NCBI GenBank assembly: GCA_023247475.1
Contig: JAHFGK010000003.1
Location: 1 to 41,148 of the forward strand
Length of the DNA stretch: 41,148 nucleotides
From: Candidatus Omnitrophota bacterium
GTDB taxonomy: Bacteria > Omnitrophota > Gorgyraeia > Zapsychrales > JAHFGK01
Reading direction: 5' to 3'
The notes under the pieces are model-generated. The model did no database searches. It was not told where the DNA came from and worked only from the letters and a program-made list of their open reading frames with translations. Each line of letters begins with the position of its first letter. Position 1 is the stretch's first letter. Positions 33,925 to 40,011 of the stretch are shown piece by piece. The position numbers and the translations under genes were made by a program.

Positions 33925-36519
33925 TCAATTTATTTGACCATTTACTTTCAACTCAAGTTCTCCGTCTCTGGCAACCCCGATTTTGATATGATTCTTTTCT
34001 TTAATTTCGCCATTAAGAATTTTCCTGGCAATGATATCTTGAACATACCTCTGGACAACCCGTTTCAGTGGACGAGCGCCATACACAGGGTCATAACCCC
34101 TAATCGCTAGGATGTCCTTGGCTTTATCCGTTAATTCGAGCGTGATATTTTTGTCTTTTAATCGGTTCTTCAGAATTCCAATCTGAATATCCACGATTCT
34201 TTGAATATCCTGCTGCTTTAACCGATTAAAGATCACTTTTTCATCGATACGATTTAAAAATTCTGGACGAAAATGGGCTTTTAACGCTTCATTAATGCGT
34301 TGTTCAATTTCATTTTTATTCTCCAAATCCACGATCAATTCGGAGCCGCTATTAGAAGTCATGATAATAATCGTGTTCTTAAAATTCACCACCCGTCCTT
34401 GCCCATCTGTTAAGCGACCATCGTCCAAGATCTGCAAAAGCGCGTTAAAAACTTCACTGTGCGCCTTTTCGATTTCATCGAAAAGCACAACCGAAAAGGG
34501 GCGGCGACGCACGGACTCGGTTAATTGTCCGCCTTCCTCGTAACCAACGTATCCGGGTGGTGCGCCAATGAGCCGGGCCACGCTATGTTTTTCCATGTAC
34601 TCGCTCATATCGATCCGAATCAGAGCATTTTCATCGTCAAATAAAAACCACGCCAACGATCGGGCCAATTCTGTCTTTCCCACACCCGTGGGGCCGACAA
34701 AAAGAAACGAACCAATCGGACGGTTAGGATCATTTAATCCCGTCCGTGATCGGCGAATACAGGAGGACACCAAAGCAATCGCCTCATCCTGACCAACTAC
34801 ACGCGTCTTAAGACTCTCTTCAATATGAATCAACTTTTCGGTTTCCCCTTCCATTAATTTGGAAACAGGAATCTTGGTCCATTTAGAAACAATCTCCGCA
34901 ATGTCTTGATCATCCACTTCTTCTTTAAGTAGAGCGCCCTTAGCTTGGAGTTTAGTTAATTCCTTATTTTGTTGAGCTAATTCCTTCTCGAAATTCACCA
35001 ATATTCCATACCGAATCTCAGCGACTTTATCGAGGTTACCGACCTTCTCCGCTTTTGATTCTTCCAGTTTCTTTTGTTCAATCTCGGCTTTGATTTTACG
35101 GATTTTATTAATGACATCTTTTTCCGATTGCCAACGCAGACGCAATTTTTTACTTTCTTCTTTCAGTCCTTCTAATTCTTTTTCTAATTTTTTGAGTCGT
35201 TCTTGAGAAGCCTCATCCTTTTCCTTCTTTAAGGCTTGGCGTTCAATTTCCAATTGACGGATCCGGCGCTCGTTAATATCCAATTCCTGCGGCATGCTGT
35301 CGATTTCAATACGCAAACGCGAAGCGGCTTCGTCAATTAAATCAATGGCTTTATCAGGTAAAAATCGGTCAGTAATATACCGCTGCGACATTGTGGCTGC
35401 AGCAATCAGAGCCGCATCTTGAATGCGCACGCCATGATGAACTTCATAACGCTCTTTAAGTCCACGTAAAATCGCAATTGTATCTTCGACGGACGGTTCA
35501 TTGACCAAAACAGGTTGAAAACGTCGCTCGAGAGCGGCATCTTTTTCAATATGTTTTCGATATTCATCCAGAGTCGTTGCGCCAATGCAGCGCAAAAGTC
35601 CCCGCGCTAACGCCGGTTTTAATAAATTGGAAGCGTCCATTGAACCTTCCGCTCGACCGGCTCCGACAATCGTGTGCAGTTCGTCAATGAAAAGAATGAT
35701 TTGCCCTTCTTTCGATTCGATTTCTTTAAGCACCGCCTTTAAACGGTCTTCAAATTCACCGCGAAATTTTGACCCCGCCACCAACGCGCCCATATCCAGA
35801 ACAACGACTTTTTTATTTTTTAAACCTTCGGGAACATCACCGAAAAAAATACGCTGCGCCAATCCTTCCACGATCGCTGTTTTCCCCACACCGGGCTCAC
35901 CAATAAGCACCGGGTTATTTTTTGTGCGACGGGATAGCACTTGAATCACCCGACGAATTTCTTCATCCCGACCAATCACCGGATCCAATTTTCCTTTACT
36001 GGCCAATTCCGTTAAATCGCGACCGTATCGTTCCAAAGCCTGATATTTATCTTCGGGATTCATATCCGTTACTTTTTGTCCCCCGCGAATTTGTTTTAGA
36101 ACATTTAACAAATCTTCTTCTTGAATGCCGTTACGTTTCAACTCCCGAGTTAAAACAGAATTATCTTCTTTATAGAGAGCCAAAAGGATGTGTTCTTGTG
36201 AAACATATTCGTCCTTCATTCCCGAAGCGATTTTTTGGGCCTGATTCAAAACCTTGTTGAGGCTATTCGACACATAGGGCCCGCTTGCTCCTTCAACTTG
36301 CGGCTTCTGACGCAATTCATTCTCTAAGGATTGCAATAGAGAAACGGTAGAAATCCCCATCTTCTCTAATATAGAGGGAACGATTTCTTCCCTTTCTTTT
36401 AATAACGAATAGGCCAAGTGCTCGGGCGTGATTTCTTGATGCCCACGTTCGCTGGCCAATTGCAGGGCATTTTGAACGGCCTCCTGACTTTTCATGGTGA
36501 ATTTATCTAGTCTTAACAT
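33925..36519 (-). CDS. clpB: ATP-dependent chaperone/disaggregase ClpB
   Basis: 864 aa. It has two AAA+ modules ([10 protein letters not shown] and [10 protein letters not shown]), a long middle coiled-coil and a Clp N-domain. Confidence 0.95.
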
Positions 36520-36610: not shown

Positions 36611-36901
36611 TTAATCTTTCCTTCTTATCTCAATTTTCATTTCTAAAATGACTTTGATACCACTAATATTCACGTGCCTTTCTTCCATTAAATAATGAAC
36701 ATAATTTAAAATTTTAATTTGCTTATGAGAATAACAGCGAGTCTTCTTACCAATGCGTTTAGCTTTAACAACTCCCAACTCATCCAGTTTACGCAAAGTC
36801 CAAACCGGAATTCTTACGATATGACTTACGACCGTAATGATGTAAACCGGTTCTTCGGGATGAATCTTCACATCAAAATGATCTTTAGATATTTCCTTCA
36901 T
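36611..36901 (-). CDS. MerR-family HTH regulator, HspR-like (heat-shock repressor candidate)
   Basis: 96 aa. A MerR-type HTH is present (YIITVVSHIVRIPVWTLRKLDELGVV). It lies directly upstream of clpB, as HspR does in several phyla. The GAGGG RBS is 5 nt from the ATG. Confidence 0.6.
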   Translation of the reverse strand: MKEISKDHFDVKIHPEEPVYIITVVSHIVRIPVWTLRKLDELGVVKAKRIGKKTRCYSHKQIKILNYVHYLMEERHVNISGIKVILEMKIEIRRKD

Positions 36902-36980: not shown

Positions 36981-37029
36981 ATTCTAACTATTGACTATCT
37001 CTTCGTTAGGTAATGTTTCGTCCATCGAG

Positions 37030-37049
37030 AAGAAAAATGAATTTTTCTT
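37030..37049. promoter_or_regulatory. Inverted repeat AAGAAAAAT-GA-ATTTTTCTT in leader copy A
   Basis: Perfect 9-bp arms with a 2-nt spacer. The repeat is conserved exactly in copy B (39674-39693). Confidence 0.4.
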
Positions 37050-37067
37050 TGCTATCATCTGAGAATG

Positions 37068-37099
37068 GGTAAATGTTTAGCTGATCGAGGTAAATGTTT
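37068..37099 (+). promoter_or_regulatory. Two direct repeats GGTAAATGTTT phased 21 bp apart (candidate regulator binding sites), copy A
   Basis: The repeats are at 37068-37078 and 37089-37099. The same pair occurs in copy B at 39712-39722 and 39733-39743. Confidence 0.35.
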
Positions 37100-37152
37100 G
37101 AGAGCAAAATTGGGAATTTTCATTGTCTCATCGAGGTTACTTTATTCCGCTA

Positions 37153-37168
37153 AGGGATTGTGCTTGCA
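37153..37168 (+). promoter_or_regulatory. Promoter-like element, copy A: sigma54-type GG-N10-GC (aGGgattgtgcTTGCa), or alternatively a sigma70 -35 TTGCAT
   Basis: GG at 37154-37155 and TTGC at 37164-37167 have the spacing of TGGCAC-N5-TTGC. In the alternative reading, TTGCAT is followed 18 nt later by an extended -10-like TGTCATACT. It lies about 75 nt upstream of the start codon. Confidence 0.3.
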
Positions 37169-37243
37169 TAGAGCCTCACGAATATGTCATACTTGAACAG
37201 TGAAGTCATTTTTTACTATTAGAAGCTTAGGAAAGGATTAACC

Positions 37244-39628
37244 GTGAAACTCAATAACCGCATTCTTCCGATATCGGTGCTTGTTTTAGCCAGTTTGGGG
37301 ATTTTAACCTCCCATTCTTCCTTGGCTCAGGAGGTTGCGGGTGCGCCATTTGAATGCAGTTATCAAGAGCCCCCGCAAGGAGACGGCGGCGGCGCTAGCC
37401 TAGACACTACTCCAGACTCCCTGGGTGCCCAGAGAATCATGGTCATTAAAGTCTTGCCAGAAGGAACCACTGAAGAACCCAATATCTCAACCGATGAAAT
37501 CGTTAAGATGATAACCAAGATTGGGGACTCCTATCGGGAAGATTCTTATAACCAGATGTGGTTTGTCGGTGCGAATAACACTCCTTTCAGCAGTAAAGAC
37601 GTCTATCCTCAAGTCGGGTCTTATCCTATCACTGTTGGTGAATATGTGTGTGACAAGAATTTATACAAAAAATGTGACGGACTCGATGACGCAACCACCT
37701 GTATCAACGCTGGAACAACCTCGGAAGGTCAATGCAAGGTAATTTGTGATGCGGTGAGCAAACTCACTCAAGCCGCTGTCAATGCTGCCCAAAATGATTT
37801 TACCTCCCCCCTTAATCCTGACCAAAATACTCAAATTGTCATTATAGCCGGTCAATGCCTTCTCACAAGAGGTGCTGTGGCTCTCCCAGGTGGTGTTTTA
37901 CAAGGGAATATAGAATCTATTTTCACTCTATCGTCCGATCATAGTAGCATTACCCATGAACTGGGCCATAATTTCGGCATGAATCATGCGGGTTATCGTC
38001 AGTGCACGGAAGGCCAGAACATCAATGATTGTCCTTTGAGGAGTGCCTACTCCGATCTTTATGATTTTATGGGGAGTGGGCCTTATTTTGCCGACAGCAC
38101 TGCTTTTTTAAAAGAAAAGGTCTTTTGGTTGACACCCACAGGTCAACACCAAATCCTGGATATCACCCCGCAACTTTCTGGAACAACTCAGTATCTTGAT
38201 TCTTTGGAAAAACAATCCCCGGGATTAAAAGCCCTGAAATTCCAAAGGGACCAAGAGGGCCGATTAAAAAGTCATATGTACATCGAATGGCGGGGGCTGG
38301 AAGAAGTTAACAATATTTACCGTACTAGAACCAATGTCCGGGATGGTGTTCTTCTGCATGTGGCGCCTGACAAAGAAGATGTCTTTAGATATGGAATGGA
38401 TGTTTCTTTGTTTGATCCCTTCTCGTTTGTGTCACAATTGGATGCGGCTCTTCCCTACAATACTTCTTATACTGACCCCGGCTCTGGGACAGTGATTACC
38501 GTTGGGCCTGATCCCAGAGGTATCCCTAACGCTAAACTGGAAGTCACCGTAAATTTAGGACGCACAGATTTTAAAGGACCCGTGATTGGCCAGCTTCATG
38601 TTGAGGAACTGGAACCCTGTGTGGCCGACATCTGGCCTGATCTTAGTGATGACAGCGGGATTTCCCGGGTTGTTTTTTATTATGCCCAAAACATGTTAGA
38701 TACTGACCCAGTGATTGGAGAATCCACCCAGCCGCCGTTTAAGTTGCATTTTGACATCCGGACCAGGAAAAGACCGATCTGGTTTAGGGTTTATGACAAC
38801 GCCAAACAACAAGGTGGAGTCAACGAAAACAATTCAACGGACAGTCCAGCCATGACCTTTCGCCTCCAACAATCCTGCCCTTACAGCGATAAAGCAGATC
38901 AGCTGCCTTCTGTTATTACAGTGACATCGTTAAGATCCGACTTTTCTCTGTCGACACTAGATATGGATCCGCCTGGTGATTCCTTTTATGACTCTTATTA
39001 CTACTTCTACCGCCCCCAAATCAATTTAAGAACACCAGTTGAGTTTCAGATTGAGATAGCAGATATAAATTTAATCCGACTGATAAAAATGACAGTCACG
39101 AGTACTACAGATTTTTCCTCTAATTGCCCCACTTATTGTAGTTCATGTGCTCCTTACAGTTCAACTGAGGATGCGTGTTACCTCCCATATTTCCATAGTT
39201 TCTCTTTGCCCCCAATTCCCAACAAATCTTTCCAGACACATATTCCATTCAGCCCTGGAAATTATCAGTTATATATTAAGGTAGAAGATAATAAGACTAG
39301 TTTGACAAGGTTATTCCTAGTAGCCCTCCACATTCTCCCGCCCATCTTCACCCGCGGCGACGCCAATGATGACGGCAGGGTCGACATCTCCGATGCCACT
39401 CGCATTCTGGAATTCCTCTTTTCGGATCCAAGCAAAAAACCCGTTTGTATGGACGCCGCCGATGTTAATGATAACGGAGCGGTCGATATCTCGGATGCGA
39501 TTTCGCTTCTGGGCTTTCTTTTTACTGGGCAATCCCCCCAGCCGCCCGCCCCTTTCCTCCAATGCGGCGAAGACCCAACCGCCGACACCCTCCCCGACTG
39601 CCAAAGCATTGTGTGCCGAGAAAATTAA
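37244..39628 (+). CDS. Secreted zinc metalloprotease (metzincin, reprolysin/M12B-like HExxHxxGxxH) with C-terminal dockerin-like repeats
   Basis: 794 aa. The GTG start is preceded by AGGAAAGGA. The signal peptide is ILPISVLVLASLGILTSHSSLAQE. The zinc motif is HELGHNFGMNHAG. The two calcium-binding dockerin-type repeats are GDANDDGRVDISDATRILEFLF and ADVNDNGAVDISDAISLLGFLF. The C-terminus is a Cys-containing tail. Confidence 0.8.
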   Translation: MKLNNRILPISVLVLASLGILTSHSSLAQEVAGAPFECSYQEPPQGDGGGASLDTTPDSLGAQRIMVIKVLPEGTTEEPNISTDEIVKMITKIGDSYREDSYNQMWFVGANNTPFSSKDVYPQVGSYPITVGEYVCDKNLYKKCDGLDDATTCINAGTTSEGQCKVICDAVSKLTQAAVNAAQNDFTSPLNPDQNTQIVIIAGQCLLTRGAVALPGGVLQGNIESIFTLSSDHSSITHELGHNFGMNHAGYRQCTEGQNINDCPLRSAYSDLYDFMGSGPYFADSTAFLKEKVFWLTPTGQHQILDITPQLSGTTQYLDSLEKQSPGLKALKFQRDQEGRLKSHMYIEWRGLEEVNNIYRTRTNVRDGVLLHVAPDKEDVFRYGMDVSLFDPFSFVSQLDAALPYNTSYTDPGSGTVITVGPDPRGIPNAKLEVTVNLGRTDFKGPVIGQLHVEELEPCVADIWPDLSDDSGISRVVFYYAQNMLDTDPVIGESTQPPFKLHFDIRTRKRPIWFRVYDNAKQQGGVNENNSTDSPAMTFRLQQSCPYSDKADQLPSVITVTSLRSDFSLSTLDMDPPGDSFYDSYYYFYRPQINLRTPVEFQIEIADINLIRLIKMTVTSTTDFSSNCPTYCSSCAPYSSTEDACYLPYFHSFSLPPIPNKSFQTHIPFSPGNYQLYIKVEDNKTSLTRLFLVALHILPPIFTRGDANDDGRVDISDATRILEFLFSDPSKKPVCMDAADVNDNGAVDISDAISLLGFLFTGQSPQPPAPFLQCGEDPTADTLPDCQSIVCREN

Positions 39629-39792
39629 TTCGAAATTAATTCGGGACACATCTTAAATGTTCCCTCCATCGATAAGAAAAATGAATTTTTCTTTGCTATC
39701 GTCTGAGAATGGGTAAATGTTTAGCTGATCGAGGTAAATGTTTGAGAGCAAAATTTGGGAATTTTCATTGTCTCATCGAGGTTACTTTATTC

Positions 39793-40011
39793 TCCTTCGC
39801 CGAAAACCCCGGACTTCAGTCCGGGGATGAAGGCGAAAGGAGAACTGCTGCGAAGCCCAACGCGAAAGCAATTGGGCGAAGCAGAGTTTGGTCCGCCTTC
39901 GCCAAGGCTTCGGCTAGATCTCTGCGAAGCTTTAGCGAAGCAGGACTTCGGAGCAATGAACCTCCAGGAAACTCCTCAAAGATACCCCGCTTTACTGCGG
40001 GGAGGTTCATT
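39793..40011 (+). other. 219-nt GC-rich, stem-loop-dense insertion (candidate structured ncRNA / cis-regulatory RNA, or a MITE/REP-like element)
   Basis: My count gives 122 of 219 G+C (56%), against 42 of 120 (35%) for leader positions 37021-37140. It contains multiple perfect stems with GAAA and UUCG tetraloops, detailed in the findings. The boundaries are ambiguous by 1-2 nt. Confidence 0.6.

Follow-up and report, generated by a model that had tools for sequence, protein, structure and literature searches.

Of two duplicated protease genes, one has an additional segment in its leader, and this segment is best understood as a small mobile element. We put at roughly 87% the probability that positions 39792-40011 of the window (the whole 41,148-nt stretch of DNA that was analysed) are a 220-nt, protein-less, non-autonomous element of the IS200/IS605 family (PATE), which inserted 3′ of the sequence TTTATT upstream of paralog B. 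On this reading the insert is an ordinary kind of mobile DNA and not a new regulatory RNA.

The extent of the insertion is well defined. An insert of 219 nt in leader B relative to leader A had been described in the initial annotation; the insert is real, and its length proves to be 220 nt. When positions 39792-40011 are removed from leader B, 217 of 232 positions align to leader A across a clean junction. The base composition given earlier is exact, with 122 G or C among 219 nt (56%) in the insert and 42 of 120 at 37021-37140. The junction taken by itself is ambiguous by at most 4 nt (ATTC), and the best boundaries come from two other copies of the element, which give TTTATT/C...GGTTCATT/, i.e., 39792-40011. 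The features that define the insertion are:

39792..40011, + (top) strand: whole non-autonomous IS200/IS605-type element (PATE), 220 nt, a precise extra segment compared with leader A
39786..39791, + strand: TTTATT, target and predicted left cleavage site, in flanking DNA outside the element
40008..40011, + strand: CATT, predicted right cleavage tetranucleotide (end of TTCATT), the last bases of the element
37141..37175, + strand: paralogous unoccupied site in leader A, TTTATT/CCGCTAAGGGATTGTGCTTGCATAGAGCC

An unoccupied site in leader B would read TTTATT/CCGCTAAGG.

Each of the three copies (in the window, L014 and L015) follows TTTATT(C), and TTTATT is present at the unoccupied sites of leader A (37141-37146) and of a related strain (L001). 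Leader A past TTTATT and leader B past the element share the same 29 nt. Each of the three copies has GGTTCATT as its end, and the next base is C, G or T; since this base differs between copies, it belongs to the flank, and there is no target duplication. Inverted terminal repeats are also absent, the first 30 nt matching the reverse complement of the last 30 nt at 3 of 30 positions. A resemblance between the left flank and the right end had been read as a possible target duplication; what it reflects instead is a target, TTTATT, paired with an element end, TTCATT. Pairing of this kind between target and element end is typical of the IS200/IS605 family. In the related strain, whose paralog A protein is 98% identical, both leaders are without the insert, and its leader A is the same unoccupied leader as leader A of the window.

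A search for further copies, proposed in the initial annotation, was made by exact 25-mer scans of genome and metagenome collections and found two, at unrelated loci, which define the ends of the element. One (L014) is in a Planctomycetia MAG, between genes of a tRNA cluster; the other (L015) is in an Omnitrophota-like metagenome contig, between recA and htrA, the RecA protein being most similar to Omnitrophota proteins. The neighbours of the three copies are a metalloprotease paralog, tRNA genes and recA/htrA. Both other copies are 174 nt long and 87-89% identical to the window copy over the shared parts, and they have the same ends, with TTTATT before the element and GGTTCATT at its end. The right hairpin of L015 is degraded, as expected of a decaying mobile element. 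The element thus shows the presence/absence polymorphism (leader A and the related strain) and the copies at two unrelated loci by which PATEs are recognised. There is no second copy within the 41-kb window and none in about 82 kb around ClpB homologues of related Omnitrophota, so that, with two copies from the 25-mer scans, the copy number looks low. Scans of viral sequences with two element-specific 20-22-mers and the pattern of the long-range helix described below gave 0 matches, and a BLAST comparison with plasmid and phage records yielded nothing of use. No unoccupied L015-type site was found downstream of recA, the closest RecA contigs with usable DNA being too short or having a different gene order.

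The second line of evidence is provided by the ends, which carry the following features:

39807..39826, + strand: left subterminal palindrome CCCCGGAC-TTCA-GTCCGGGG, 15 nt from the left end
39985..40002, + strand: right subterminal palindrome CCCCGC-TTTACT-GCGGGG, with a 9-nt tail, AGGTTCATT, to the right end
39803..39806, + strand: putative left guide tetranucleotide AAAA, directly 5′ of the hairpin foot, assigned by position and by analogy with GL of IS608 (PMC3201880, PMC5934647)
39981..39984, + strand: putative right guide tetranucleotide GATA (GAAA in L014, AAAA in L015), assigned by position and by analogy with GR of IS608 (PMC3201880)

The first hairpin of the insert, CCCCGGACTTCAGTCCGGGG, is identical to the IS605 end hairpin at two other loci. 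At one (L002) this 20-mer lies 5′ of tnpA (Pfam Y1_Tnp, E = 4.5e-39) and tnpB; at the other (L005) it lies 4 nt 3′ of a TnpB ORF, at the TnpB right end, and the site is recognised as Rfam HgcC with 52.6 bits (gathering score 50). The HgcC model gave no match to the window element in stretches of 251 and 601 nt, even at E <= 10. The right hairpin belongs to the class of the HgcC consensus CccCGcccUUuAgggCGggG-AGGAGGUCAG, which is also found at the right ends of L002, L006 and L016, and the right-end stretch CTCCTCAAAG...CCCCGC..GCGGGG resembles the right end of L002, CTCCTACAAAGCCTCGCGC..GCGCGGGG. Within the 41-kb window, CCCC...GGGG hairpins of at least 6 bp occur only at 39807-39826 and 39985-40002. 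As in other PATEs, then, there are near-terminal palindromes at both ends that are related to those of IS605-type elements. The IS200/IS605 end hairpin has been described as an 'RE-like UUCA tetraloop', and HgcC and this tetraloop have been tied to the 3′ ends of IS1341-type tnpB genes and to a PATE-derived RNA (PMC4615843). The distance from hairpin to end is asymmetric, with 15 nt on the left and 9 nt on the right; the spacings in IS608 are 19 and 10 nt (PMC3201880), and asymmetric spacing is shared by PATEs (PMC3119063). These hairpins, together with the copies at unrelated loci, support the mobile insertion that the initial annotation had allowed as one option.

At 220 nt, the element is too short to encode a transposase. 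ORFs across it contain no Pfam domain at E <= 1 that would indicate a coding remnant, tblastn gave no significant similarity to TnpA or TnpB, and neither tnpA nor tnpB was found in the 41-kb window or at any copy-bearing locus. The transposase, like any current activity, we infer by analogy with IS608 and ISDra2. Under that paradigm, a Y1 (HUH) TnpA encoded elsewhere would bind both subterminal hairpins on the single-stranded top (+) strand. Its left cut would fall just 3′ of TTTATT in the flank, and its right cut just 3′ of TTCATT, which belongs to the element itself. The cuts would probably be positioned by guide bases 5′ of each hairpin, for which AAAA and GATA are the candidates. Read in register, TATT and AAAA would form T-A pairs at positions 1, 3 and 4; GAAA of L014 and CATT would form C-G at position 1, in place of the T-A pair of the left end. 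The top strand would then leave as a circle and be pasted 3′ of another TTTATT without target duplication. The departure of the right guide in the window copy (GATA, compared with GAAA and AAAA in the others) and a nested 54-nt insertion suggest that this copy may be immobile. A further observation runs against the PATE reading: the GC skew of the + strand is negative over most of the window, and if the skew reflects replication, the top strand would be on the leading-strand template, opposite to the usual strand bias reported for the family (PMC5027513). This argument is weak, as it rests on one contig whose genes lie mostly on the same strand.

The interior of the element is made of hairpins, and the minimum free energy fold consists of four successive hairpin domains:

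39792..39842, + strand: left-end domain, with outer stem CTCCTTCGCC/GGCGAAAGGAG, a 5x5 internal loop and the inner hairpin (from folds)
39843..39888, + strand: internal hairpin 2, with base module CTGC(T)GCGAAGC...GCGAAGCAG and an apical GC-GAAA-GC extension (from folds)
39892..39945, + strand: hairpin 3, a nested insertion of 54 nt in which two GAA/GAA hairpin modules flank the loop TAGATCT as an inverted doublet
39955..40011, + strand: right-end domain, in which an 11-bp helix of AATGAACCTCC (39955-39965) and GGAGGTTCATT (40001-40011) encloses a small hairpin and the right palindrome

All of the stems previously listed exist, with the correction that the local GC-TTCG-GC and CTGC/GAA/GC-TTTA hairpins are the arms of a single hairpin at 39890-39946. 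The left-end architecture is shared by L002 and L004, which have covarying outer stems around an identical inner hairpin. The base of hairpin 2 is kept in L014 and L015 while its apex varies, and the 11-bp long-range helix is invariant in all three copies. Folding against shuffled controls, as had been proposed, found the insert to be far more stable than the shuffles on either strand, with z about -7.5. The RNA fold has an energy of -108.2 kcal/mol, with z = -7.75 for the + strand and z = -6.66 for the - strand; the values for DNA are z = -7.4 and z = -6.7, and in each of the four tests 0 of 200 shuffles folded as well. Near-equal folding of the two strands is expected for DNA palindromes.

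A recurring unit accounts for much of this structure. The motif GCGAAG, for which five occurrences had been claimed, is present four times on the + strand; its complement CTTCGC occurs twice and GCGAAAGC once in the insert, and the six occurrences of GCGAAG/CTTCGC compare with 0.13 expected from shuffles. The unit has the form 5′-C-T-S-C GAA GC [Y-T-Y-R] GC GAA G-S′-A-G-3′, with the bracketed bases as the tetraloop, and amounts to two GCGAAGC-type mini-hairpin sequences in one hairpin with a GAA/GAA internal loop. The units GC-GAA-GC and GC-GAAA-GC are ultra-stable DNA mini-hairpins (PMC13037366). In hairpin 3 the two arms match as inverted repeats at 17 of 24 positions. L014 and L015 are without this hairpin and read ...GTATGG/CTTCGGAGC.... 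The right arm of hairpin 3 (39922-39943) is found as an exact 22-mer in unrelated viral contigs, and a similar doublet is present in L011. The module is common in unrelated viral contigs, where one finds paired variants often but an unpaired variant only rarely, and it has a clean natural covariation signal there. Its orientation relative to flanking ORFs is inconstant, and no protein gene common to the module-bearing loci was found. An Rfam search with the module returned no family match, plasmid records gave weak, scattered matches only, and we found no paper that contains its exact sequences. It is conceivable, if rather doubtful, that the module is a previously undescribed, structure-constrained nucleic-acid motif, found alone or in inverted doublets in phage and bacterial genomes that are not related to one another, and that the 54-nt doublet is a fresh insertion or expansion. 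Such a module could be a tiny mobile or REP-like unit, or else a functional ssDNA or RNA structure, with a role such as keeping SSB or nucleases away. In the PATE reading, the interior would be passenger DNA composed of this GC-GAA-GC hairpin module, and the window copy would have gained its nested doublet later.

There are several alternative explanations for a structured segment in this position. The initial annotation favoured a folded functional RNA tied to paralog B, such as a riboswitch-like leader that evolved to control the gene, and the very stable predicted fold (z = -7.75), the GNRA-like and UUCG-like loops, the G-A internal loops and the position 95 nt upstream of the paralog B start codon are all compatible with a structured cis-regulatory RNA. 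The loops have a different meaning, however, when they are compared with known sequences: the TTCA hairpin is an IS200/IS605 end hairpin, and the GC-GAA-GC and GC-GAAA-GC units are the DNA mini-hairpins noted above. The minus strand folds almost as well, compensatory changes are found in 0 of 55 predicted pairs among the three copies (87-94% identical), and the copies adjoin unrelated genes with no constant downstream gene family. Neither leader A nor either leader of the related strain has the segment. No RNA family was matched, as the initial annotation had said: the Rfam search it proposed found nothing at gathering thresholds in the whole window and only chance matches (e.g., mir-9424 and anti-hemB) in the element region at E <= 10, and a tRNA/tmRNA scan found none. 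Finally, because the element lies upstream of a block conserved in all four leaders, which is the likely promoter, it is probably outside the paralog B 5′ UTR unless there is read-through. We consider a regulatory RNA highly improbable. The least credible explanation is a deletion, in which copy A would have lost a stretch of ancestral leader sequence between the short direct repeats TTTATTC and TTCATTC. Similar short sequences at the junctions could in principle permit such a repeat-mediated loss, but the same segment with the same ends is present at two unrelated loci in other genomes, and the related strain is without it in both leaders; these observations contradict the deletion that had been raised as a possibility.

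Palindromic repeats of the REP/BIME or REPIN type, spread by a domesticated RAYT (TnpA-REP) and not by an IS200/IS605 transposase, would resemble the insert in some respects. Imperfect GC-rich palindromes follow one another in tandem within an AT-rich intergenic region, the nested hairpin 3 is a REPIN-like inverted doublet, and RAYTs are related to IS200 TnpA (PMC3333891). On the other hand, the terminal hairpins match IS605 ends either exactly or by class, and the defined asymmetric ends with one fixed target site are the behaviour of a PATE. REPs are usually dense, with a conserved GTAG-type 5′ tetranucleotide and a high copy number; here there is no GTAG-type tetranucleotide at the palindrome feet and there are no other copies in the 41 kb or in 82 kb from relatives. 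A REP-type origin is accordingly very unlikely, if slightly less so than a regulatory RNA. A further scenario is compatible with the PATE reading and adds to it, namely that the element is also a working guide-RNA gene, with its right part as an omega-RNA-like scaffold and the flanking CCGCTAAGGGATTGTG... as the 3′ guide. Cuts made by a TnpB from elsewhere at unoccupied TTTATT sites, such as that of leader A, could then promote further copying of the element. In favour are the frequent presence of omega RNAs in PATEs (PMC10055086) and the expression in Halobacterium of a PATE-derived RNA that has a UUCA hairpin (PMC4615843); at a TnpB right end, moreover, HgcC has a hairpin of the same class as its 3′ part. 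The invariant 11-bp helix joins the last bases of the element to an upstream segment, and the 29 nt shared by leader A and the DNA past the element would supply a matching target. Against this are the failure of the HgcC model to match the element, the absence of TnpB from every copy-bearing locus, the lack of a promoter-like + strand site inside or just upstream of the element, and the long-range helix, which is without covariation and is not seen at the right ends of L002 or L005. We therefore think this added function improbable, although it is more plausible than the REP, regulatory RNA and deletion scenarios.

Like the PATEs of haloarchaea and Geobacillus (Dyall-Smith et al. 2011, PMC3119063; Meers et al. 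2023, PMC10055086), the element is too short for a protein, has no inverted terminal repeats and no target duplication, has near-terminal IS605-type palindromes that are farther from the end at the 5′ than at the 3′ side, and follows a short fixed targeting oligonucleotide on its 5′ side. It also receives further small repeats, as haloarchaeal PATEs are struck by SMR-A elements. Unlike the known PATEs, its host is an Omnitrophota-like (PVC group) bacterium, its copy number appears low, its interior is the GC-GAA-GC hairpin module with no tnpB remnant, and an 11-bp helix sequesters its right tail. The autonomous elements IS608 and ISDra2 share the subterminal hairpins on one strand, the left cleavage site that lies outside the element and serves as target, the right cleavage inside the element about 10 nt past the hairpin, and the guides 5′ of the hairpin foot (PMC3201880, PMC5934647); for the window element, cleavage and guide pairing are predicted from the geometry of the sequence. 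It differs from them in having no tnpA or tnpB, in its target (TTTATT, not TTAC or TTGAT) and in its left spacing (15 versus 19 nt). In Rfam RF00062 HgcC/sotRNA (Gomes-Filho et al. 2015, PMC4615843), the hairpin CCCCGGAC-UUCA-GUCCGGGG is found as well, and together with the class CCCCGNNN-UUUA-NNNCGGGG followed by AGG... it marks the right ends of IS1341-type tnpB elements and PATE-derived RNAs; in the window element, by contrast, the UUCA hairpin is at the left end, and the covariance model gives no score. As for the mini-hairpin DNAs d(GCGAAGC) and d(GCGAAAGC) (Hirao and colleagues; PMC13037366), the top strand has four GCGAAGC and one GCGAAAGC. These two are the most stable mini-hairpins and are reported to be nuclease-resistant, poorly bound by SSB and frequent at ssDNA priming sites (PMC13037366). 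In the element they are not free, but are embedded in longer hairpins as GAA/GAA internal loops, and a role in transposition is putative.

The insertion may have had consequences for the host locus. The element lies 95 nt upstream of the paralog B start codon and, as previously noted, separates the upstream repeats of leader B from its conserved promoter-like block. It pushes these repeats 220 bp away from that block, and its very stable hairpins would enter any read-through transcript from paralog A. A promoter/terminator scan found no sigma-70-like + strand promoter in either leader, and the right hairpin is terminator-like on the minus strand only. Any regulatory effect would be a by-product of the insertion.

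Finally, we note that a conspicuous candidate for a structured RNA has turned out, in the most probable reading, to be a miniature derivative of IS200/IS605. PATEs have been known mostly from haloarchaea and Geobacillus, and their range is now extended to genomes of Omnitrophota and of the Planctomycetia type. The pair TTTATT/TTCATT offers a concrete rule for target and end, and the combination of CCCCG...CGGGG with an AGG tail, a TTTATT to the left of the element and TTCATT as its right end provides a signature for scans of the PVC group. For the host, the element marks a recent rearrangement of the leader in one of two protease paralogs.

Leader B, upstream of the second of two paralogous metalloprotease genes, contains an extra segment relative to the otherwise collinear leader A. 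The initial annotation had put its length at 219 nt; the segment is real and far from chance, with a length of 220 nt (39792-40011). A repeat finder shows the A/B register shifting by 220 nt between 39792 and 40006, and excising 39792-40011 leaves leader B identical to leader A at 217 of 232 positions, with a seamless junction that slides by at most 4 nt (ATTC) when judged from the window alone. The earlier GC counts were exact on recounting (122/219 for the insert, 42/120 for a leader stretch; 40.8% window-wide). The genes start at 37244 (A) and 40107 (B) and encode secreted M12-like metalloproteases; paralog A, the sole complete copy of the two, has a dockerin domain.

39792-40011, + strand: the extra segment (element)
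39807-39826: left hairpin (hairpin 1)
39843-39888: hairpin 2
39892-39945: nested 54-nt piece (hairpin 3)
39985-40002: right palindrome

The structural observation made earlier is confirmed: the insert folds as four hairpin domains in succession, at -108.2 kcal/mol as RNA compared with -71.5 +/- 4.7 in dinucleotide shuffles (z = -7.75); z is -6.66 for the reverse strand, and -7.4 and -6.7 for the two strands under DNA parameters. Because both strands fold equally, the predicted structure is more suggestive of palindromic DNA than of a fold specific to RNA. The interpretation as a functional RNA is unsupported, and no Rfam family matched the window or the element region. The + strand has four GCGAAG, where five were first counted, and two copies of its complement; the expectation from shuffles is 0.13.

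The core of hairpin 1, CCCCGGACTTCAGTCCGGGG, has exact matches in seven viral contigs. In one (L002) an ORF matching Pfam Y1_Tnp (IS200 transposase; E = 4.5e-39) comes directly 3′ of it, and after that ORF a TnpB carrying OrfB_IS605 and Cas12f1-like_TNB domains; L005 and L007 have it 4 nt 3′ of a TnpB ORF. The L005 site is Rfam HgcC (52.6 bits, above threshold), whose consensus includes the hairpin CccCGcccUUuAgggCGggG, then AGGAGGUCAG. [quoted passage not shown] Judged by sequence, the left hairpin of the insert is an IS605 end hairpin. The right end, CCCCGC-TTTACT-GCGGGG plus AGGTTCATT, is of the same hairpin class, and CTCCTCAAAG..., directly before it, is similar to the L002 element's right end. 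The 41-kb window has no hairpins of this class besides these two.

Other short protein-less elements share the left hairpin and have different interiors (L016 1645-1770, ~125 nt, right hairpin CCCCGGCCTTTAGGCCGGGG-AGGCTTCACTT; L013 7440-7700); they show that this hairpin family has PATE-like derivatives across several lineages, a Bacteroidetes MAG among them. In L006 (IMGVR_UViG_3300019360_000147; ~854-1245, and also next to 6317 and next to 10499), two IS605-type hairpins (CCCCGCACTTTAGCGCGGGG-TAGTTGAC and CCCCGGACTTCAGTCCGGGG-AGGACGTCAA) enclose mini CRISPR-like arrays whose 36-nt repeat is GGCACAATCGAATCCGAAACTCAGAGGGGATTGCGAG, as if a PATE-like element carried a mini-array as cargo.

Scanning the genome and the metagenome collections once each for an exact pattern gave two further copies of the element, both of 174 nt and 87-89% identical to the window copy across shared parts. 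One (L014), in an uncultured Planctomycetia MAG, lies between tRNA genes, and its first 67 nt equal the window copy exactly; the other (L015) is flanked by recA and an htrA-like gene, and its RecA is most similar to Candidatus Omnitrophota proteins, as is the window ClpB (81%). TTTATT(C) precedes all three copies, all three end in GGTTCATT, and the next base 3′ is C, G or T. Given these common ends and the unoccupied site in leader A, where TTTATT is followed by CCGCTAAGG..., the simplest boundaries are TTTATT/C...TTCATT/; the target stays in the flank and is not duplicated. Inverted terminal repeats are absent (3/30 end positions match). The end-to-hairpin distances are 15 nt (left) and 9 nt (right), the same asymmetry as in IS608 (19 and 10 nt; PMC3201880) and likewise in PATEs (PMC3119063). 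In a related-strain contig from another metagenome (L001; paralog A product 98% identical), leader A lacks the segment, as does the shorter leader B, which has an unoccupied TTTTATT at the equivalent position.

Around these loci there are other differences. The paralog B leader in L001 is much shorter (2640-2690 versus window 39629-39791) and has none of the upstream repeats, paralog A ends in different C-terminal residues in L001 and in the window, and a leader A copy of 137 nt (94-98% identical) lies upstream of the element in the window, which suggests recombination or gene conversion between paralog leaders. L001 leader A (121-150 versus window 37069-37108) has one fewer direct repeat GGTAAATGTTT(AGCTGATCGA), which looks like a small repeat-mediated indel. 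The tRNA cluster of L014 (80-380 and 730-915) has a duplicated tRNA 3′ end (CGAGTTCGACCCTCGGGCGGCTCA) and several more GCGAAG-bearing hairpins around the element copy, which may be integration remnants.

ORFs overlapping the segment have no Pfam domains, and the segment has no TnpA/TnpB similarity. A PATE is by published definition a non-autonomous IS200/IS605 derivative (PMC3119063; PMC10055086). Taken together, the IS605-type ends, the extra copies, the ends and target rule, the absence from the related strain and the non-coding character assign the element to the PATEs of the IS200/IS605 family, in agreement with every sequence-level feature tested. It behaves neither as a gene-linked cis-regulatory RNA nor as a REP, and membership of Rfam HgcC fails by score.

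By analogy with IS608 (PMC3201880, PMC5934647, PMC5027513), a Y1 TnpA supplied in trans would bind both hairpins on the + strand when single-stranded, cut on the left after TTTATT and on the right after TTCATT, and circularise the top strand, which would then be inserted 3′ of another TTTATT. Cleavage in IS608 is guided by the four bases that lie 5′ of each hairpin foot (PMC3201880, PMC5934647). The corresponding bases here are AAAA on the left and GATA (window), GAAA (L014) or AAAA (L015) on the right; in register with the cleavage tetranucleotides TATT/CATT, position 1 is T-A on the left and, in L014, C-G on the right, a pattern suggestive of guide pairing. No transposase was found in any of the three copy-bearing loci, which leaves mobilisation in trans putative. 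The window copy may be inactive, given its GATA variant and nested insertion, and the right hairpin of the L015 copy is damaged, as expected of decaying mobile DNA.

What the PATE assignment leaves unexplained is a GAA/GAA hairpin module. The nested piece, 39892-39945, is missing from L014 and L015; it is an inverted doublet whose arms match at 17/24 positions, and its right arm, CTGCGAAGCTTTAGCGAAGCAG, has exact matches in four unrelated viral contigs, in one case within a similar doublet. This module also makes up the base of hairpin 2 in each of the three copies. Its form, C-T-S-C GAA GC (YTYR) GC GAA G-S'-A-G (window 39845-39884, 39892-39945), recurs in dozens of unrelated viral contigs (L009-L012, L017-L028, L035-L058), in some several times or as inverted doublets.

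Module variants counted in viral contigs
CTGCGAAGC-NNNN-GCGAAGCAG, paired: 17 matches in 16 loci, contig GC 27-70%; loops TTTA, CTTG, TTCA, CTCG, TTTG
CTCC...GGAG, doubly changed, still paired: 26 matches in 25 loci; same loop set
CTGC...GGAG, half-changed, unpaired, same base composition: 2 loci; loops unrelated

This three-way comparison is a natural covariation test, and its counts show a pairing constraint on the module. The first and last loop bases are pairable in every case of the CTGCGAAGC-NNNN-GCGAAGCAG form, and bases flanking the module extend the stem and covary (81% paired cells versus 72% shuffled; 0/500 shuffles reach the observed value). The module matched no Rfam family, its loci share no neighbouring gene, its orientation to flanking ORFs is not constant, and its exact sequences had no match in the literature. 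Among 'mini-hairpin DNA' sequences, GCGAAGC and GCGAAAGC rank as the two most stable, with reported resistance to nucleases and poor binding by SSB (PMC13037366). The element has five of these sequences in total, each on its top strand, and it is conceivable that they stabilise or compact a putative single-stranded transposition intermediate.

At the host locus, the element lies ~20 nt upstream of a block, TTGTGCTTGCATAGAGCC...TATGTCATACT, conserved in 4/4 leaders and likely a promoter, and therefore separates it from the ATCGAG/GTAAATGTTT repeats, as first proposed. The GTG start of paralog B is 95 nt downstream of the element. Since the repeats are wholly absent from L001 leader B, they are not essential for paralog B, and the effect of the element may be small. 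Terminator prediction gave none on the + strand between paralog A and the element, and read-through RNA from paralog A would carry its hairpins. A MerR-family gene (36611-36901) directly upstream of clpB (33925-36519) looks like an HspR-like heat-shock regulator arrangement; it is kept in related Omnitrophota (L030-L033), where the metalloprotease paralogs are not adjacent to it.

TnpB guide RNAs are common cargo of PATEs (PMC10055086). In leader A the 29 nt 3′ of TTTATT equal those 3′ of the element, so if the element made an omega-RNA, its guide would match leader A; this reading is speculative, given that the element has no HgcC match and that no TnpB was found at the copy-bearing loci. The element adds to a known kind, the PATEs, from a little-studied phylum.
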